This document shows positions 17,817 through 27,035 of a DNA stretch of 64,000 bases, piece after piece; position 1 is the stretch's first letter, and every line of letters starts with the position of its first letter. Source of the DNA: a virus; the IMG/VR virus record IMGVR_UViG_3300035698_008372, positions 64,001-128,000 of that record. One strand, 5' to 3'. Both the position numbers and the translations under genes were made by a program. The notes under the pieces are model-generated. The model was not told where the DNA came from and did no database searches. It worked only from the letters and a program-made list of their open reading frames with translations.

Positions 17817-17889
17817 GCGGTTGAGGTGTAAGGGGATTTGCATGTCGGCTTTCCAGCCGGAGGAGTTGGTTCAAAACCTTCCAACCGCT
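17817..17889 (+). tRNA. atypical tRNA-Gly-like (UCC in a 6-nt loop, mismatched T-stem)
   Basis: GCGGTTG/CAACCGC acceptor, U73; TCGGC-TTTCCA-GCCGG; GGTTCAAAACC; A at position 8; no CCA. Confidence 0.7.
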
Positions 17890-17900
17890 CTATTACAAAT

Positions 17901-17973
17901 GCGATTGAGGTGTTCAAGGGGAGCACGTCGGTATTCCATATCGAAGGAGTGGGTTCGAATCCTGCCGATCGCT
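17901..17973 (+). tRNA. atypical tRNA-Gly(UCC)
   Basis: GCGATTG/CGATCGC, U73; TCGGT-ATTCCAT-ATCGA; GGTTCGAATCC; A8; no CCA. Confidence 0.85.
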
Positions 17974-17984
17974 CTATTAAAAAT

Positions 17985-18057
17985 GCGATTGAAGTGTAAC
18001 AGGTAAGCACGCCGACATACCATGTCGGAAGAGTGGGTTCGAGTCCTACTGATCGCT
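17985..18057 (+). tRNA. atypical tRNA-Gly(ACC)
   Basis: GCGATTG/TGATCGC, U73; CCGAC-ATACCAT-GTCGG; GGTTCGAGTCC; A8; no CCA. Confidence 0.85.
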
Positions 18058-18084
18058 CTATTAATGCAAGGAAAAAAATGTTAT

Positions 18085-19242
18085 ATGAACTTCTCAAGTA
18101 AATTTTTCGATATCAAACCATTTGATATAGAAGAAGAAAAACAAAATCTAATCAATAATTTGGACTTTTTACATTCTATGACAGTGGAAGAACAAACCCT
18201 GTATAAGAAATGGCAGGAGTTCAATAAGAACGAACATAAGATCAGGGGGAAAGCCCACCTGTTTGATGTGTTTGAAAAAAGGTTATGGGCACCAACCGAT
18301 ATCTATGATGAGGATTTAACCATTAAGGAAATTAATGCGTTGGAGCCAGTTGTAGAATATGCAGGAAGCGATGAAGCTGCTGATTGGTCATTGTATAGGA
18401 TGTTAATTCACACAATGGATTGGTCTGCGAACCCCGGTAGAAATATGAAATTCTATGTAAAGGATGCTGTCACTCGTAAGGTGTTGGGTCTAATATCAAT
18501 GGGTTCAGATGTTACCAGTATCAAGGTCAGAGATGATTATATTGGTTGGAAAAAAGAAGATAAATTTGTAAATCACAAGTTGAATAATACGGCTATAGCC
18601 AGCACAATTGTGTCGGTTCAACCATTGGGTTATAACATGCTTGGTGGAAAATTGATAGCCGCGTTGGCAACAGTGTCAACAATTAGGGACAAGTGGGAAA
18701 AGGAATATGGTGATGTTCTAGCTGGGGTTACAACCACTTCATTATATGGCATCCATTCACAATATAACGGAATTCCACATTGGAAAACGATGGGTGAATC
18801 TGCTGGCAAGATTAGGATCAAGCCAGATGATAGTGAATATTTGAAATGGAATAAGTGGCTCAAAGAGAATTATCCAGATGAGTTTGAAAAAGCCATTACT
18901 GGAACGGGTCCCAAACAGAATGTATTAAGCAAGGTATTCAGCCATTTGAAAATTAGAGGTTATGAGCATGGATTTCATAGAGGTGTCTATTTTGCGTCAA
19001 TCTATGATAATACAGTGCCATTCTTAAAGGGTGAAATTGAACAATCTGAGCTCAAAATGAAACTGAAATATGAACAGGATTATGAATATATCGACAGGTG
19101 GTGGAAAAAGAAAGCCATAAGACGATATCAGAACATGATTGCACAGGATAGGATTAAACCAGAGAAATTATTCTATGGTGATATCGTGGGTGTATCTTGG
19201 GAAGAATGCCAAGAAATGTATTTAAAAGAAGTGGGGAGATAA
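18085..19242 (+). CDS. DUF4338/DruA-like protein (putative GNAT fold, Mom-related)
   Basis: NPGRNMKFYVKD, RDDYIGW, QPLGYNMLGGKLIA, TTTSLYG..SQYNG; ATG 18085 (track start overlaps the tRNA). Confidence 0.7.
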   Translation: MNFSSKFFDIKPFDIEEEKQNLINNLDFLHSMTVEEQTLYKKWQEFNKNEHKIRGKAHLFDVFEKRLWAPTDIYDEDLTIKEINALEPVVEYAGSDEAADWSLYRMLIHTMDWSANPGRNMKFYVKDAVTRKVLGLISMGSDVTSIKVRDDYIGWKKEDKFVNHKLNNTAIASTIVSVQPLGYNMLGGKLIAALATVSTIRDKWEKEYGDVLAGVTTTSLYGIHSQYNGIPHWKTMGESAGKIRIKPDDSEYLKWNKWLKENYPDEFEKAITGTGPKQNVLSKVFSHLKIRGYEHGFHRGVYFASIYDNTVPFLKGEIEQSELKMKLKYEQDYEYIDRWWKKKAIRRYQNMIAQDRIKPEKLFYGDIVGVSWEECQEMYLKEVGR

Positions 19243-19419: not shown

Positions 19420-21180
19420 ATTTATAAGTCAATTTATTTCGAAGCGGAAAAACAGAAGATTCATTTGTGGGATGATGACCGCGGCTATTTCACAATACCA
19501 TATAGACGTTATGGGTATATAAAAGATAGGGGCGGCACATATACTTCATTATATGGGGACAGGCTTAAGAAAATCCACAAGTGGGGCAAAGATTCCACTG
19601 GATTATTTGAGAGTGATGTACACCCTGAAACAAGAACATTAATTGATCTGTACACCAATGACGATGAACCATCAAAAGGTAACAAAACGATTATTATTGA
19701 TATTGAAGTCGAGGTCACAGATGGATTCCCAACTGCTACTTTGGCCGAGAATAAGGTTACGGCTATATCAATTTACGATTTTACGGATAAGAAATATTAT
19801 GGTTTGGTATTGGAAAATGGCAAGGGTATTATCAAGCCATCCACAACTCCAGAGCTTGACATTGAAGTGTTTGATATGGAAGTTGATTTGTTGAATAGAT
19901 TCATGCAGATATACCTACGCATAAAACCAACTATTATTACTGGTTGGAATGTGGATAGATTTGATGTAACATACCTATACAATAGAATGGCCGATCAGCT
20001 GGATGAAGATGTAGCCAATTGCTTGTCTCCAATCGGTGTGGTACATTGGAGTGATTTCAGGGGTAGCTACAGAATCGCTGGGGTTGCAACAATGGATTAC
20101 TTACAGTTGTATAAGAAATTTACATTTACGCAACAGGCTTCATACAGATTGGATGCGATTGCTGATTTCGAATTGGGTGAACGCAAAATTGAATATGATG
20201 GTACACTAAACGAATTATATGAAAATGACATTGAAAAATTTGTCCAATACAACATCCATGATGTTCGACTAATTGAGATGTTGGACAAGAAATTGAATTT
20301 TATAGAAATCGCTCGTGGTATTTGTCACTTGGGGCATGTTCCGTATGAAGATATTTACTATGACAGTAGATACCTAGAGGCTGCTATTCTTGTTTATCTG
20401 AAAAAATTGAACATCATCGCTCCGAATAAGCCCGAGCGTGAGGGTTGGAAGGATGAAATTGGCTTTGAGGGTGCTCACGTTCAAAAGCCCAAGAAGGGTC
20501 GTCATAATTGGGTATATGATTTGGATTTAACATCAATGTATCCAAGCATCATTATGTCGTTGAACATTTCTCCAGAGACAAAAATAGGTAAAATAGATGG
20601 GTGGGATTCCAATAAATTTGTGAAAAAAACCCCAAAAACCTATACTGTCAAATATGGTACAACCGCACTCCAATCCATGGATCAGGATGAACTACAGGTA
20701 TTTTTTGATACCAATCATGTGTCGGTATCGGCCAATGGGATATTGTACAAAACTGATAGGGATGGCCTAATCGCGTCACTCCTGAAAAAGTGGTTCGACG
20801 AACGTGTTGAATTCAGAAAATTGGCTAAGAAGTTTGCCGACGCGGGTGATAACGAGAAATATGATTATTTCAATAGACGACAACATATCCAGAAGATTCT
20901 CCTTAACTCACTTTTTGGGGCACTCGGTTTGCAGGGTTGGAGATTCCATGACGTAGACAACGCCCTTGCAGTTACATCGACGGGGGTAGAATTAATTCGA
21001 TTTTCCAAAACCATTGCAAACCATTATTACAATACTGAGCTTGGTAAAGAAATTGAACTTGAAATGGAAGATGGGTCTATCAGAAAATTATATGAAAATT
21101 GGCCAATCCATGTAAAAAGGGGTGGTAAAAAAGTTCAAATTTTAGCCAAAAATCTCAAAATAAATGATGATATTCTCTAA
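19420..21180 (+). CDS. family B DNA polymerase, N-terminal part (probable ATT start)
   Basis: ExoI DIEV, TGWNVDRFD, YNIHDV, motif A DLTSMYPS, motif B KILLNSLFG; ends in an intein-like tail. Confidence 0.93.
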   Translation: MYKSIYFEAEKQKIHLWDDDRGYFTIPYRRYGYIKDRGGTYTSLYGDRLKKIHKWGKDSTGLFESDVHPETRTLIDLYTNDDEPSKGNKTIIIDIEVEVTDGFPTATLAENKVTAISIYDFTDKKYYGLVLENGKGIIKPSTTPELDIEVFDMEVDLLNRFMQIYLRIKPTIITGWNVDRFDVTYLYNRMADQLDEDVANCLSPIGVVHWSDFRGSYRIAGVATMDYLQLYKKFTFTQQASYRLDAIADFELGERKIEYDGTLNELYENDIEKFVQYNIHDVRLIEMLDKKLNFIEIARGICHLGHVPYEDIYYDSRYLEAAILVYLKKLNIIAPNKPEREGWKDEIGFEGAHVQKPKKGRHNWVYDLDLTSMYPSIIMSLNISPETKIGKIDGWDSNKFVKKTPKTYTVKYGTTALQSMDQDELQVFFDTNHVSVSANGILYKTDRDGLIASLLKKWFDERVEFRKLAKKFADAGDNEKYDYFNRRQHIQKILLNSLFGALGLQGWRFHDVDNALAVTSTGVELIRFSKTIANHYYNTELGKEIELEMEDGSIRKLYENWPIHVKRGGKKVQILAKNLKINDDIL

Positions 21181-21242
21181 GTTTATACTATTTATATACA
21201 GACACAATGTATCAATGTATAAAATATAAATTGGAGAGTAAG

Positions 21243-22082
21243 ATGAAAAAGGGGTCAGCGAGAACATTACAATATTGATTGGATAAAGGGTATAAAGGGG
21301 AAGAAGCAGAAAAAATGCGTATGAGCAGAATTCCAGGTACTATAGAATATTTTACTATATTTAAGGGGCTCCCATTGAATGAGGCCGAAATTGCGAAAGA
21401 AAATTATAACAAAAGGTCCGTTCCGACATTGGAAAATATGATACGCAAGTATGGGGAAACTGAAGGTGAAATTAGGTGGGGTGCATATCGTGAAAAACAG
21501 GCAAAATCCAATACATTTGAATATAAGCGTGATAAGTATGGTTGGACATTGGAACAATTCGATGCTTATAACAAATCAAGGGGATTGTCTGGTAAAGACA
21601 ATGGCAATTATGGGTCGAGCTATTATGAAGCTTGGGTTAAAAAGTATGGAAAAATAAAGGCCGATGAAATGAATAATGCTTTAGGTGAATTGAAAGCCAA
21701 AGGGGGGAAATCTCAAAAAGGTGTACCCAAATCATTTGTGGCTAGAAAAAATATGAGTATAGCTGCAAAGAAAAGGATAATGGATCAGGGTACTTACATT
21801 TCATATAATCCAAATTCAATTCCGATAATTGAAAAATATGGAAAAGAAAATGGATATAAATTTCAACATGCTGAAAATGGCGGCGAATATTTGGTTAGGG
21901 AAGTTTACTATTGGGTAGATGGGTATGATCATGAAAATAATGTGGTGGTTGAATATGATGAAAAATACCATGAAATGCAAACGGAAAAAGATAAAATTAG
22001 GCAACAACATATAATGGATGTGTTGGGGTGCAAATTTATAAGAATTAAAGAATCTGGAGAAATTAAGATTTATGAAAATTAA
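21243..22082 (+). mobile_element. free-standing Vsr/DUF559-like homing endonuclease splitting polB (UGA at 21276)
   Basis: QY*LDKGY..EEA, KYG...G repeats, FQHAENGGEY...YWVDGYD.ENNVVVEYDEKYH...D..RQ..I...LGCKFIRI. Confidence 0.82.
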
Positions 22083-22993
22083 AAATATAAGGGAATCAAA
22101 AGGTGTCGATGTGGATCATGTTATCTACATCGACACGTAGTGCGGATTCACTATTTATTTCGTCAACCGCGATGGTGAGCAAACGATATGGAAACAAGAA
22201 ATTCAGTGATGTCATGCTGTCACAGTACATCTTGACAATAGCTGGTGACACCCAAAAATTCATAAATAACTCGTATGACTATTTTGCCAAGAAATTCTGT
22301 AATCTTCCCGGTGCACACCGGTTTGAGATTAAACAGGAATTGATTGCAAAGTCAGCTGTATTTGTCAATGCTAAGAAAAATTATGGGTTGCGTGTTATCA
22401 ATGACAATGGTGTGAAAGTGGATAAAAATGTGTACAAAGGCTTGGCCGTAGTTCGCAGTGATTTCCCACAATCATACAGAAAATTGTTAGGTGAGGTGCT
22501 AGGTGATGTTCTAGCGGATGTTCCAAAAGATAAGATCGACGATCGTATTATTGAATACAAAAACAACATGAGATACTTGAATGTCGAAGATATCGCCAAA
22601 CCAACTGGGGTTAAGAATATCAAAAAATATTTGGTTCCACCTGGAGCGGGTGGGGGATTTTCTACTTGGAAGTCTCGTTGTCCTATCCATGTCAAATCAT
22701 CTATCATATACAATGATTTGATTAAGCATTTTGACAAACAAAAGAAGTACGCATTGATAGGGGCCGGCGACAAGGTCAAATGGGTGTACTTAAAGAAAAA
22801 TAATTTAGGATTAGAAAGTGTGGCTTATACAGGTCACGAAGACCCAAAGGAAATTATGGATTTCATATATAATTTTGTGGATAGGGATAAGATGTACGAT
22901 AGTATATTTTTGAACAAAATCACATCAATATATTCTGCCATGGACTGGTCGTTGCCCATAGATAAAAAGTTCTCGATGGACAGATTTTTTTAA
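22072..22993 (+). CDS. family B DNA polymerase, C-terminal part; 7-nt coding gap (22138-22144) inside YIDT^DS
   Basis: ATG 22072 MKIKNIRESKGVDVDHVIYIDT-TAG; DSLF resumes at 22145 in the +1 frame; later AKKNY, KGLAVVRSD, PIHVK, GDKVKWVYL, C-terminal SMDRFF. Confidence 0.9.
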
Positions 22994-24697: not shown

Positions 24698-25501
24698 ATG
24701 GAAGAACAATTTGTAGACACGTCGAGGGTAGAACTTAGGATTATTACTACCGCTATAGCAAAAAGGATGATTGTAAAATACCATTACAGTCACGCATGGC
24801 CCGCATCAACTCAAGCTCCATTAGGGGTATTCTATAAGACAGGCAAGAAACATAAGTTTCTTGATGAGGATGATGAAAAATTGATTGGTTGTATTGTCTA
24901 TGGCAATCCAGTTGGTCGTAGAGCGGCCGCATCTATAGTGGATAGTGATGAGATTAACGCTCATGAAAGTGTTTATGAATTGACAAGGTTATTCATCCAT
25001 GATGGATACGGCAAGAATATTGAGAGTTATGTTATAGGTCAATCGTTCAAATGGTTGAAAGAGAATAGGCCTAAAATCAAAATGTTGATCAGTTATGCCG
25101 ACCCAGCACAGGGTCATGTTGGAGGAATCTATAAGGCCACCAACTGGGGATACCAAAGTGCGGATGATATGAAGTTGATGTTCAATTACCCAATTTCATT
25201 AACAAACGATCCTTATGATTGGATTCATAGCCGTACTGTATTTTCAAGGTACGGAGTGACTCCATATCCAACGGATGATGCAGTAGCCAAAATGAAGAAA
25301 GCGGTGGGCCAGACATTCTGGATGAAACGAGAATGTGTGAAGCATCGCTATATTCAATTCTTAGTGGACAAGAGGGAAAAACGGAAATTGATAAAATTGC
25401 TGAAGCACCCATTTCGAGACTATCCTACAACGGCCGACGACGATAGTGAAATTATTGAAGTGATAGTTGACGGGAGTGGAAAATTTGGGAAGTTCATGTA
25501 A
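24698..25501 (+). CDS. Mom-family DNA-modification GNAT, paralog 1
   Basis: KYHYSH, LIGCIVYG.P, ELTRL, ISYADP.QGHVGGIYKATNW, KHRYI. Confidence 0.8.
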   Translation: MEEQFVDTSRVELRIITTAIAKRMIVKYHYSHAWPASTQAPLGVFYKTGKKHKFLDEDDEKLIGCIVYGNPVGRRAAASIVDSDEINAHESVYELTRLFIHDGYGKNIESYVIGQSFKWLKENRPKIKMLISYADPAQGHVGGIYKATNWGYQSADDMKLMFNYPISLTNDPYDWIHSRTVFSRYGVTPYPTDDAVAKMKKAVGQTFWMKRECVKHRYIQFLVDKREKRKLIKLLKHPFRDYPTTADDDSEIIEVIVDGSGKFGKFM

Positions 25502-26268
25502 TGGAGAAATATACAGACATATCTAGAGTAAGTGTTCGACCAATAGATCGGACTACTGCTAAAGGTATCATTGAAAAATACCATTATAGTCATTTGATTC
25601 CAGCTACTTTACAGCTGTCATTGGGTGTATTTTATGAATCTGATGACACAGGTAAATTTTTTGATGACAATGAAAAATTGATAGGGTGCATAATGTATGG
25701 GCATCCATCTGGCAGAATGGTAGTGGATTCCATAACCGAAGGTGATTTGCTCGATCGGGAAAATATAATGGAACTTTTGAGGTTGTTTATCCATGATGGT
25801 TATGGCAAGAATATTGAGAGTTATGTAATCGGACAATCGTTCAAATGGCTCAAAATCAACAGACCAAAAGTAAAGGTGTTAATCAGCTTTTCCGACCCAG
25901 CAGAAGGTCATTTGGGTATCATATACCAATCGACCAACTGGTTGTTTCAAATGATTCCATCATCTGGTAAGTGGCAATTTTCAATGGAAAAAAACCCGTA
26001 TCATTGGGTACACCCCAGAACAATATTTGGAAGATATGGATTTTGTGGTGTGGAAGATATGAAAAAGTCATTTGATAAGAACTTCTATGCCAAGCGCCTG
26101 ACAAACAAATTTCGATATTTGTACATACTGACCAATAAATCGGAAGCTAGGAAAATCAAGAAAAATCTAATCCACGAACTACTGCCATACCCAAAGTCAA
26201 TTGATTATATGGAAGAAATAGTGGAAGTCGAAGTGAGCGGAAATTCGAAGCTCGGAAAGTTCATATAA
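25501..26268 (+). CDS. Mom-family DNA-modification GNAT, paralog 2
   Basis: KYHYSH, ELLRL, ISFSDP.EGHLGIIYQSTNW, KFRYL. Confidence 0.8.
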   Translation: MEKYTDISRVSVRPIDRTTAKGIIEKYHYSHLIPATLQLSLGVFYESDDTGKFFDDNEKLIGCIMYGHPSGRMVVDSITEGDLLDRENIMELLRLFIHDGYGKNIESYVIGQSFKWLKINRPKVKVLISFSDPAEGHLGIIYQSTNWLFQMIPSSGKWQFSMEKNPYHWVHPRTIFGRYGFCGVEDMKKSFDKNFYAKRLTNKFRYLYILTNKSEARKIKKNLIHELLPYPKSIDYMEEIVEVEVSGNSKLGKFI

Positions 26269-27035
26269 TGGAAAAATATACGGATACTTCTAGGGTCACT
26301 ATAAGGCCGATAGACAAAAAGACTGGTATTAATATGATTAAAAAATACCATTACACTCACAAAGCACCTGGTACTACTCAGGATGTGTTGGGTGTGTTTT
26401 ATAAGGGTGAAGAAGCCAACAAGTTTTTCGATGATGATGAAGTATTGATCGGGTGCATGTTATATGGTCATCCAGTTGGTAGGTGGACAATAAAATCCAT
26501 TATCGAAGATGAAAATATCAAATCCTATAATGTGTATGAATTACTGAGGTTATTTGTACACGATGGGTATGGCAAGAATATCGAAAGCTTTGTCATAGGT
26601 CAATCATTTAAGTGGCTGAAAGAGAACCGACCAGAGGTGAAAATATTGGTGAGTTATGCCGATCCTGAAGCCGGTCATGTGGGCATCATATACCAATCAA
26701 CTAACTGGATGTTCCAGATTCCAGAACCAGGTGGAGCAATGATGACTTCACTAACCAAAGACCCGTATGTATGGGTTCACCCAAGGTCAATGCACGCAAA
26801 GTTTGGTGCTTGTGGGGTGGATGGTCTCAAAGAGGCATTGGACAAACCATTCTACATGAAAAAATCACCTCCAAAATTTAGATATGTATATCTATTGACG
26901 GACAAAAGGGAGAGCAAGATATTGAAATCGAAATTCGTATATCAACAATCTCCATATCCAAAAGAGCACGATTATGTTGAAAAAGTTATTGAAATGGTGC
27001 CCAATGAAGAGAAAAAATTTAGTAAATTTATTTAA
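26268..27035 (+). CDS. Mom-family DNA-modification GNAT, paralog 3
   Basis: KYHYTH, ELLRL, VSYADP.AGHVGIIYQSTNW, KFRYV. Confidence 0.8.
   Translation: MEKYTDTSRVTIRPIDKKTGINMIKKYHYTHKAPGTTQDVLGVFYKGEEANKFFDDDEVLIGCMLYGHPVGRWTIKSIIEDENIKSYNVYELLRLFVHDGYGKNIESFVIGQSFKWLKENRPEVKILVSYADPEAGHVGIIYQSTNWMFQIPEPGGAMMTSLTKDPYVWVHPRSMHAKFGACGVDGLKEALDKPFYMKKSPPKFRYVYLLTDKRESKILKSKFVYQQSPYPKEHDYVEKVIEMVPNEEKKFSKFI

Follow-up and report, generated by a model that had tools for sequence, protein, structure and literature searches.

How can a phage make its DNA polymerase when a stop codon and a frame change lie inside the catalytic motif of the polymerase gene? This question is raised by a stretch of viral DNA of 64,000 nucleotides (nt), positions 64,001-128,000 of the IMG/VR record IMGVR_UViG_3300035698_008372, which is called the window here. 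The whole record is 140 kb long and about 71% complete. The window encodes a family-B DNA polymerase (PolB) in two parts, an N-part and a C-part, with an endonuclease gene between them (Table 1). The ATG at 22072 opens MKIKNIRESKGVDVDHVIYIDT, and this open reading frame (ORF) ends with TAG at 22138-40, inside the YIDTDS sequence of motif C. The rest of the motif follows in another frame, after a gap of 7 nt. The first-pass annotation, made from the DNA letters, proposed that the ribosome bypasses this gap, and its coordinates for the ORFs, the insert, and the hairpins were all correct on re-check. It is highly likely that the element is real, conserved, and in need of a recoding event that restores DTDS. 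From sequence comparison, this event is likely to be a hop of the P-site tRNA-Thr over the gap.

The insert was recognized by comparison with intact relatives. Two IMG/VR contigs, L002 and L003, whose C-part is 84% identical to that of the window, encode an uninterrupted PolB of 833 amino acids (aa). Across the split region, they read ...ELGTDKDYVIYIDTDSLFISS / ...NHYYNTELGTDKDYVIYIDTDSLFISS... Relative to L002, the window contains a 1056-nt insertion (21046-22101) after ...ELG, the homology boundary being placed by eye in the alignment, and TAGTGCG, exactly 7 bases that L002 lacks, which separates ACG (Thr) from GAT (Asp), that is, at YIDT/DS. Removal of the 7 nt restores YIDTDS, in agreement with L002, as the first-pass annotation had claimed. 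An assembly or sequencing artefact in a single contig could be considered, as the record is a metagenome assembly, but its probability is negligible. The identical sequence comes from three assembly pipelines (ENA, JGI, and Logan), and about 30 diverged alleles have analogous gaps. The insert is not an artefact, because the region is identical base for base in all eight independent assemblies examined. ORF P0082, the gene-caller version of the C-part, is present on at least 23 contigs of the ENA, JGI, and Logan assemblies, and the 571-aa N-part is also called in independent contigs. The exact 23-mer of the window gap had no match in IMG/VR outside its own record. Among cultured phages, there was no near-identical DNA to the region, and the best cultured relative is 38% identical.

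Stop-codon reassignment was rejected as an explanation. There is no sign of a genetic-code change, since TAG, TGA, and TAA all terminate long ORFs in this genome. Neither a tRNA-Thr gene nor a suppressor tRNA gene was found in the 140-kb record, where only tRNA-Gly genes were observed. A second polymerase of family B or family A was not found in the same 140-kb record (~71% complete). Homologues of the C-part form the C-terminus of PolB in 1186 phage records.

The gap is not restricted to the window. The first clue was C-terminal PolB fragments with odd leaders (MLSTLTRSSDS..., MYLHRHLTDS..., and MVHLHGYLTDS...) in the protein collection. Alleles were gathered from protein matches, from 80 related IMG/VR loci, and from a pattern scan of metagenome and viral contigs. 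Six of the 80 loci and the DNA of the odd-leader fragments show the gap anatomy at the identical codon boundary, DT/DS. The final set contains about 30 distinct metagenomic PolB alleles, tabulated in 32 rows, which are 43-85% identical. This search of related polB genes thus gave a gap at the same position in about 30 alleles. In about 70 other relatives, Y[IV]DTDS is continuous, and none of them has an insertion there. In prokaryote genomes, the pattern scan gave two chance matches, neither of which was PolB.

The gap is 5 nt long in 24 rows, 6 nt in 2 rows, and 7 nt in 6 rows. The typical 5-nt form is ACU UGA CU/GAU. The 6-nt rows read ACG UAA AUG/GAU and ACG UAA AUA/GAU. The 7-nt rows include the window, L115 (ACG UAG UACG/GAU), L091 and L092 (UAGUUCG), and L113 (UGAAAUU). 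A stop codon directly follows the Thr codon in all 32 rows (TGA 15, TAA 11, and TAG 6). The pattern scan required T-R-R after the Thr codon and was biased towards stops. Evidence free of this bias comes from the seven loci found by protein matches, all of which have TAG, TGA, or TAA after the Thr codon, and from a scan for DT, 5-7 nt, and DS with no demand on the gap sequence. That scan gave no further PolB and only 16 unrelated chance matches.

The codon in front of the stop always encodes Thr (ACG 15, ACT 14, ACC 3, and ACA 0 among the 32 rows). ACA is never the take-off codon (0/32, in rows that are not independent), though it is the commonest Thr codon in the genome of the window (36%). 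The triplet that ends the gap is ACN in 24 of the 32 rows, with all four third bases represented; in the others it is GCN (3 rows), AUN (3), or UCG (2). With G.U allowed, pairing of a Thr anticodon (3'-UGN-5') with this landing triplet is possible in 30 of the 32 rows. In L115, whose N-part is 83% identical to that of the window, both the take-off codon and the landing triplet are ACG, an exact match. The hop is favoured because the last three gap bases behave like a codon of the same tRNA, and because DTDS results in each of the three length classes only if the gap is deleted.

The frames would also permit conventional recoding with inserted residues. A +1 shift on the 7-nt gap would give DT-SA-DS, a -1 shift on the 5-nt gap would give DT-[LV]T-DS, and the 6-nt gap would be read through. 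In a variant of this explanation, the ribosome would skip only the stop, give or take 1 nt, and then read the landing triplet as an ordinary codon, giving DT-A-DS in the window and DT-T-DS in the 5-nt class. A stop codon in the A site is a classic stimulator of +1 shifts, and the 5-nt class would insert a fairly uniform [L/V]-T. However, three mechanisms (-1, 0, and +1) would be needed for one conserved element, and the polymerase would be obliged to tolerate one or two extra residues in the turn of motif C. The inserted residues would be diverse (SA, SS, ST, EI, LT, VT, xM, and xI) in an invariant catalytic turn, where neither the intact relatives nor the stop-free scan revealed any PolB with an insertion. 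There is no slippery sequence, and the P-site tRNA could not re-pair after the shift, where the Thr anticodon would face, for instance, CGU or UUG. As the lengths demand differing shifts and no slippery motif is present, programmed +1 or -1 frameshifting was rejected, and conventional recoding as a whole is unlikely.

The other possibility is that the two sides of the gap are not joined. Termination at UAG would leave a three-piece polymerase, or the C-part would start internally (ATG 22109 or 22118, giving MLSTSTRSADS... without YIDT), or the gene would be defective and another polymerase would be used. Gene callers annotate such ORFs (P0004 and P0082), and restart is possible in the 6-nt allele reading TAA ATG GAT. 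However, restart codons are lacking in most alleles, where the triplets of the C-part frame before ACN are TTA, GTA, and CTG. Y.DT, within the 12 codons upstream of the gap, is strictly conserved in the leader frame in all gap alleles, across 43-85% protein divergence, a pattern that is intelligible only if this short ORF is translated and its product continues into the remainder of the polymerase. Alleles with complete sequence have an intact ORF downstream of the gap, encoding 277-292 aa with a conserved ...RFF or ...FFSF tail, L135 being the sole exception. The allele is abundant in many samples, and the absence of a second polymerase from the record also counts against this explanation, which is very improbable.

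Table 1. Coordinates of the split polB genes and of the proposed bypass site in the window.
Feature	Position	Strand	Remarks
PolB N-terminal gene (N-part), 571 aa	19465..21180	+	Exonuclease domain, motifs A and B; Pfam DNA_pol_B_exo1 and DNA_pol_B
C-terminal extension (CTE), 44 aa, KEIELEMEDGSIRKLYENWPIHVKRGGKKVQILAKNLKINDDIL, then stop	21046..21180	+	Cassette-encoded tail on the N-part; in all split and no intact alleles
Free-standing probable homing endonuclease, 267 aa	21279..22082	+	Probable Vsr-like / PD-(D/E)XK C-terminal domain; alternative ATG gives 255 aa
Start of C-part, N-terminal extension (NTE, leader) MKIKNIRESK	22072..22101	+	11-nt out-of-frame overlap with the endonuclease ORF
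Replaced exon stretch "HomR", GVDVDHVIYIDT	22102..22137	+	Homologous to GTDKDYVIYIDT of the intact allele
14-base-pair (bp) hairpin, 6-nt loop, one G.U	22103-16/22123-36	+	3' arm at -12 to +2, counted from base 1 of the take-off codon
Proposed take-off codon ACG (Thr)	22135..22137	+	Thr codon in all gap alleles
7-nt coding gap TAGTGCG	22138..22144	+	UAG stop (22138-40) and UGCG; absent from L002
Proposed near-cognate landing triplet GCG	22142-44	+	Last three bases of the gap
C-part of PolB downstream of the gap, 282 aa plus stop	22145..22993	+	From DSLFISS... to ...MDRFF tail; +1 frame

A hairpin precedes the gap. The segment 22095-22160 folds at -26.2 kcal/mol (z = -5.6), and none of 200 shuffled sequences was as stable. 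Both the 14-bp hairpin and a 6-bp stem (22137-42/22149-54) are in the minimum-free-energy fold of this segment. The 5' hairpin, with 12-14 bp, is present in all 31 gap alleles folded. In these alleles, ATCTAYNNNGAY(AC) pairs with an upstream complement, ending at or inside the take-off codon. In a fixed 39-nt window, the folding energies of gap alleles whose leader has the standard 22 codons are -11 to -25 kcal/mol, versus a mean of -3.7 and a best value of -8.3 kcal/mol for 36 intact alleles, in which the 5' hairpin is absent. In longer leaders, the extra codons sit in the loop of the hairpin, often as a second stem, and the position of the 3' arm is unchanged.

The hairpin is maintained by compensating changes. 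In an alignment of 15 alleles, 91% of the cells are paired, a share that falls to 15-45% once the partner columns are shifted along. Both members have changed in five pairs, and none of 500 shuffles reached the observed covariation score. In several cases, the compensation alters the encoded amino acid on each arm, as with D to G paired with I to T. In the window, the recoding of HomR is such that V-D-V-D pairs with I-Y-I-D. The 14-bp hairpin ending in the take-off codon, noticed at first in the window, is thus a conserved and covarying structure. Together with the conserved position, the stop, and the landing triplets, it favours the programmed bypass in the catalytic motif of PolB that the first-pass annotation had suggested. 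The leader is conserved as well, with M[KI]IKxI[RK][RK] in about 25 alleles. The distance from the start to the take-off Thr codon is mostly 21-22 codons, with a range of 21-30.

A conserved covarying hairpin abutting the gap could also position a nuclease. In this explanation, which the first-pass annotation had raised as a micro-intron, the 5-7 nt would be cut from the mRNA beside the hairpin and the ends rejoined, perhaps by RNA repair enzymes of the phage. It leaves unexplained both the invariant in-frame stop of any kind after the Thr codon and the Thr-like terminal triplet with a free third base. The conservation of "a stop" after the Thr codon, rather than of a fixed sequence, points to the ribosome and not to an RNA-cutting enzyme. 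Rfam families gave no intron match in 20500-22700, and the hairpin persists in a gap-less allele (see below). We know of no excision of 5-7 nt from mRNA in bacteria or phages. RNA-level removal is accordingly disfavoured, and its probability is very small.

A hop of tRNA-Thr could proceed as follows. The polymerase would be made as two polypeptides after the split by the cassette, which supplies the tail of the N-part, the endonuclease gene, the MKIK-leader start, a recoded, hairpin-forming copy of 36 nt of the exon, and the 7-nt stop insert. Translation would begin at ATG 22072 and cover 22 codons. Once UAG occupied the A site, the peptidyl-tRNA-Thr on the P-site ACG would release its anticodon, the mRNA would slip forward by 7 nt, and the tRNA would re-pair with GCG through a G.U at the first position. 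Decoding would resume at GAU. The predicted product is MKIK...VIYIDT-DSLF..., with the junction ...HVIYIDTDSLFISS... and an intact catalytic motif.

The hairpin and the leader may both have roles in the hop. By standard ribosome geometry, at take-off the 3' arm of the hairpin would be inside the ribosome, between the mRNA exit and the P site, and the 5' arm and the loop would have just emerged. Each base of forward slippage would allow one more pair of the hairpin to form, and this refolding may supply a forward pull. A comparable forward role of pairing in the exiting mRNA has been argued for gene 60 bypassing. The basic leader peptide may contribute. The gap may also protect the allele from its own endonuclease.

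Several observations weigh against the hop. The landing triplet of the window is only near-cognate, GCG for ACG, with G.U at position 1. Landing on UCG, which is found in one allele (two rows), would include a U.U mismatch, and AUN is found in three rows. The 32 rows are mutually related alleles, and the counts are of non-independent events. There is no conserved 3' stem-loop at take-off, as the downstream folds have a mean of -4.2 kcal/mol and no common shape. A 6-bp hairpin burying the stop, part of the original proposal, is present in the window, but it is broken even in L115, the closest gap-bearing relative, and was rejected as a conserved element. The efficiency is another point. In E. 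coli, unstimulated short hops reportedly reached about 1% in the work of Weiss et al. in 1987, and a subunit of an essential polymerase would need a high yield.

The last point of this kind is the group of L163-L165. These loci have a split PolB with no gap (YGDTDS), yet they retain a compensated hairpin of -20.6 kcal/mol and the leader MKIKKIKKEK. L163:2247-3909, like L164 and L165, encodes an endonuclease of the family found in the window. This type of allele represents either a secondary loss of the gap or a stage of the cassette before the gap. The hairpin and the leader, both kept in the gap-less L163, therefore belong to the cassette and cannot be taken as established signals for bypassing. 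Gap-less alleles with the hairpin are rare, since the IMG/VR scan gave no hairpin followed by ungapped DTDS, against 17 gap-bearing contigs.

The structure of the locus relates the gap to a mobile element. A mobile endonuclease cassette split polB between motif B (KILLNSLFGALG in the N-part) and motif C. The homology of the N-part to intact PolB stops at ...NHYYNTELG (~21045). Split alleles share the CTE tail, the leader of the C-part, and the recoded exon stretch. The tail is about 45 aa long, with the pattern ...[IV]E[IV]E[LM]E[DN]G...V.R.G....L...L...DD[FI]L, and is found in all split alleles. HomR is more diverged than its surroundings, with 24 of 36 nt identical to L002 versus 73% and 77% in the flanks. 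L140, which has the gap and no endonuclease, and L013, an intact allele of the same clade, are about 80% identical on both sides. Between these flanks, L140 has an insertion of 205 nt, the 5-nt gap, and about 40 nt in which the two alleles have diverged. Presence and absence at one site among relatives, with a diverged exon beside the insert, are thus both observed, as in mobile cassettes.

In a quick maximum-likelihood tree of the PolB C-parts, gap alleles are interspersed with intact ones. The intact L002 is sister to the pair of the window and L115, and L140 is inside a well-supported clade of 12 intact alleles. This patchy distribution indicates that the cassette was gained or lost repeatedly. 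The layout, the polymorphism, and the patchy tree all agree with the earlier view that the insert is carried with a homing-endonuclease cassette.

The content between the two halves varies. An endonuclease of the family in the window is present in the window, L009, L108 (with the near-duplicates L127 and L135), L109, L119, L123, L125, and L132. In L115, it is broken into ORFs of 84 aa and 200 aa, ~660-910 nt upstream of the take-off codon, and L131 retains only a remnant of 65 aa. Other ORFs separate the halves in L007, L096, L111, and L113. Only a spacer of ~20-30 nt is left in L094, L112, L116, L128, L134, L136, L137, and L140. The cassette evidently outlives its endonuclease.

The endonuclease itself is probably a free-standing homing endonuclease of the Vsr-like / PD-(D/E)XK type, as judged from its predicted structure. 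The invariant core of the family is QHAENGGE...VDGYD...E.DE..H...D..R. Pfam gave weak matches to DUF559 (E = 0.0013, below the Pfam cut-off) and to MTES_1575, and NUMOD3 motifs are present in two of nine family members. In the AlphaFold model, the C-terminal domain has a predicted local distance difference test score (pLDDT) of ~75-89. Foldseek matched this domain to PD-(D/E)XK nucleases only, with all E-values above 0.01; the match to the catalytic domain of the homing endonuclease I-Bth0305I (3r3p) had a probability of 0.97 and a template modelling (TM) score of 0.54 over 79 columns, also at E > 0.01. Searches of the PDB with the single sequence and with a profile gave nothing relevant, and the search for endonuclease-related loci gave one weak locus only.

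The closest architectural parallel is the bypass and mobA cassette of T4 gene 60, reportedly described by Huang et al. in 1988 and by Bonocora et al. in 2011. A survey of the MobA/gene 60 element in topoisomerase II found a CTE, an endonuclease, an NTE, a "HomR", and a bypass cassette, with the NTE overlapping the endonuclease ORF by 8-32 nt (bioRxiv 10.1101/2022.08.31.505936). There, the endonuclease was swapped (including for a VSR-type enzyme), decayed, or lost, and a few clades lost the bypass and kept the split (bioRxiv 10.1101/2022.08.31.505936). The order of CTE, out-of-frame NTE, HomR, and gap is the same in the PolB element, and in both a free-standing endonuclease divides an essential gene of replication. 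The known or, in PolB, proposed take-off codon is followed right away by a stop and preceded by an mRNA stem, and the landing triplet is matched or near-matched. In both, the endonuclease is often decayed, swapped, or lost while the gap persists, and rare alleles are split but gap-less.

The differences are also clear. The split gene is that of a topoisomerase in gene 60 and of PolB, at motif C, here, with no sequence homology. The gap is 50 nt in gene 60 (20 nt in one clade) and 5-7 nt here, leaving no room for a stem-loop or a Shine-Dalgarno sequence inside the gap. Take-off is from Gly GGA after 46 codons in gene 60, and would be from Thr ACN after about 22 codons here. MobA is an HNH endonuclease, in contrast to the probable Vsr-like/PD-(D/E)XK enzyme of the PolB element. 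Membership of the homologous gene 60/MobA family was therefore rejected, since neither the host gene nor the length of the gap, the codon pair, or the endonuclease agrees. The parallel with gene 60 that had been drawn for the window holds for the architecture, but not for the second, 3' stem-loop, which is not conserved.

In its mechanism, the PolB element appears closer to the short stop hops of E. coli than to gene 60. Hops of +5, +6, and 9 nt were observed with E. coli reporters (Weiss et al. 1987 and O'Connor et al. 1989, as cited in the bioRxiv survey and in a 2016 review). In those hops, as proposed here, the peptidyl-tRNA leaves its codon at an A-site stop or slow codon and re-pairs a few nt downstream. 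Those sites were synthetic and of low efficiency, whereas the PolB sites are natural, conserved, in an essential gene, and accompanied by a hairpin and a leader. According to the 2016 review, no natural in-frame stop hop was known; the two 6-nt alleles are candidates for such hops.

Other systems share only parts of this organization. "Fractured genes" with free-standing Vsr-like homing endonucleases have been described (Dassa et al. 2009, PMC2677866), and the gp43 polymerase of T4-like Aeromonas phages is split (Petrov and Karam, cited in PMC2677866). The likeness lies in the halving of a conserved enzyme gene with a Vsr-like endonuclease gene between the halves, and a split B-family polymerase is known. 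Fractured genes are mostly rejoined by split inteins, unlike the PolB element, which has no intein nucleophiles, motifs, or family match, and none of them has a frame-breaking insert in a catalytic motif. The "byp" elements of Magnusiomyces capitatus mitochondria (Lang et al. 2014, cited in the 2016 review) are also short inserts in essential genes that are skipped in translation, with a take-off/landing match that is sometimes imperfect. They differ as mobile GC-rich hairpins of 27-55 nt at many sites, with relaxed mitochondrial decoding and no link to an endonuclease cassette.

No description of a bypass or frameshift in motif C of a phage PolB was found in the literature, in a search that left most subscription journals outside. 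The gene 60 bypass cassette was called unique in the 2022 survey (bioRxiv 10.1101/2022.08.31.505936). There is a reasonable probability that the alleles represent an undescribed, widespread family of hairpin-driven hops of 5-7 nt, which rescue a PolB motif broken by a cassette. They would be a second, independent invention of the gene 60/mobA kind and the smallest natural bypass known.

Apart from T4 gene 60, there has been essentially no case of efficient programmed bypassing in bacteria or phages. If the hop is true, the PolB element would probably be a second, non-homologous bypass family. It would offer dozens of natural variants, with three gap lengths, three stops, several take-off/landing pairs, and varied loop sizes. 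These would form a ready series of mutants in which to study how the anticodon lets go, how the mRNA slides, and how landing occurs when the distance is as short as it can be. Whether structure forming at the mRNA exit pushes the ribosome forward could also be tested directly. Homing-endonuclease cassettes would then have a repeatable strategy, in which an invariant catalytic motif is disrupted and recoding rescues it. At present, such polymerases appear in the annotation of metagenomic phage genomes as truncated or frameshifted ORFs.

Introns and inteins were also considered for the cassette. A group I intron was rejected, as Rfam families gave no match in 20500-22700 even at E-values up to 10, where only noise was seen, the junction bases are unfit, and the tail and the leader are conserved as protein. 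An intein or split intein was rejected, as the tail starts with K/E, the C-extein starts with G/V, and no intein family was found. The 44-aa tail (21046-21177) and the 10-aa leader (22072-22101) resemble a docking pair for the polymerase halves. They are possibly a relic of a split intein; the tail had no match in Pfam, and the nucleophiles are absent.

True inteins occupy the neighbouring position D/TDS in other relatives, that is, in L166 (LR756508.1, ~2380-2520, ...VVHN/TDSVF...) and in P0066-P0070. The coding DNA of the motif, YxD/T/DS, is thus a hot spot, into which mobile elements of at least two kinds insert. Contigs encoding P0051, which belong to a gap-bearing lineage, have weak matches to intein splicing domains in the dUTPase and clamp-loader genes, according to their gene tables. 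The genomes encoding P0051 seem to be unusually rich in mobile elements that target replication genes.

Elsewhere in the window, 17817-18058 contains a tRNA-Gly-like cluster. ARAGORN found two tRNA genes there, with the anticodons TCC and the unusual ACC, and Rfam gave a further tRNA-like match at 17817-17889. Three tandem paralogues of the Mom family (PF25680), of 267, 255, and 255 aa, were noted for 24698-27035 (and 18022-19242), downstream of a clamp-loader-like AAA gene. A DruA-like gene (PF14236) is located upstream of polB. The Mom and DruA-like assignments are from the gene tables of sister contigs.

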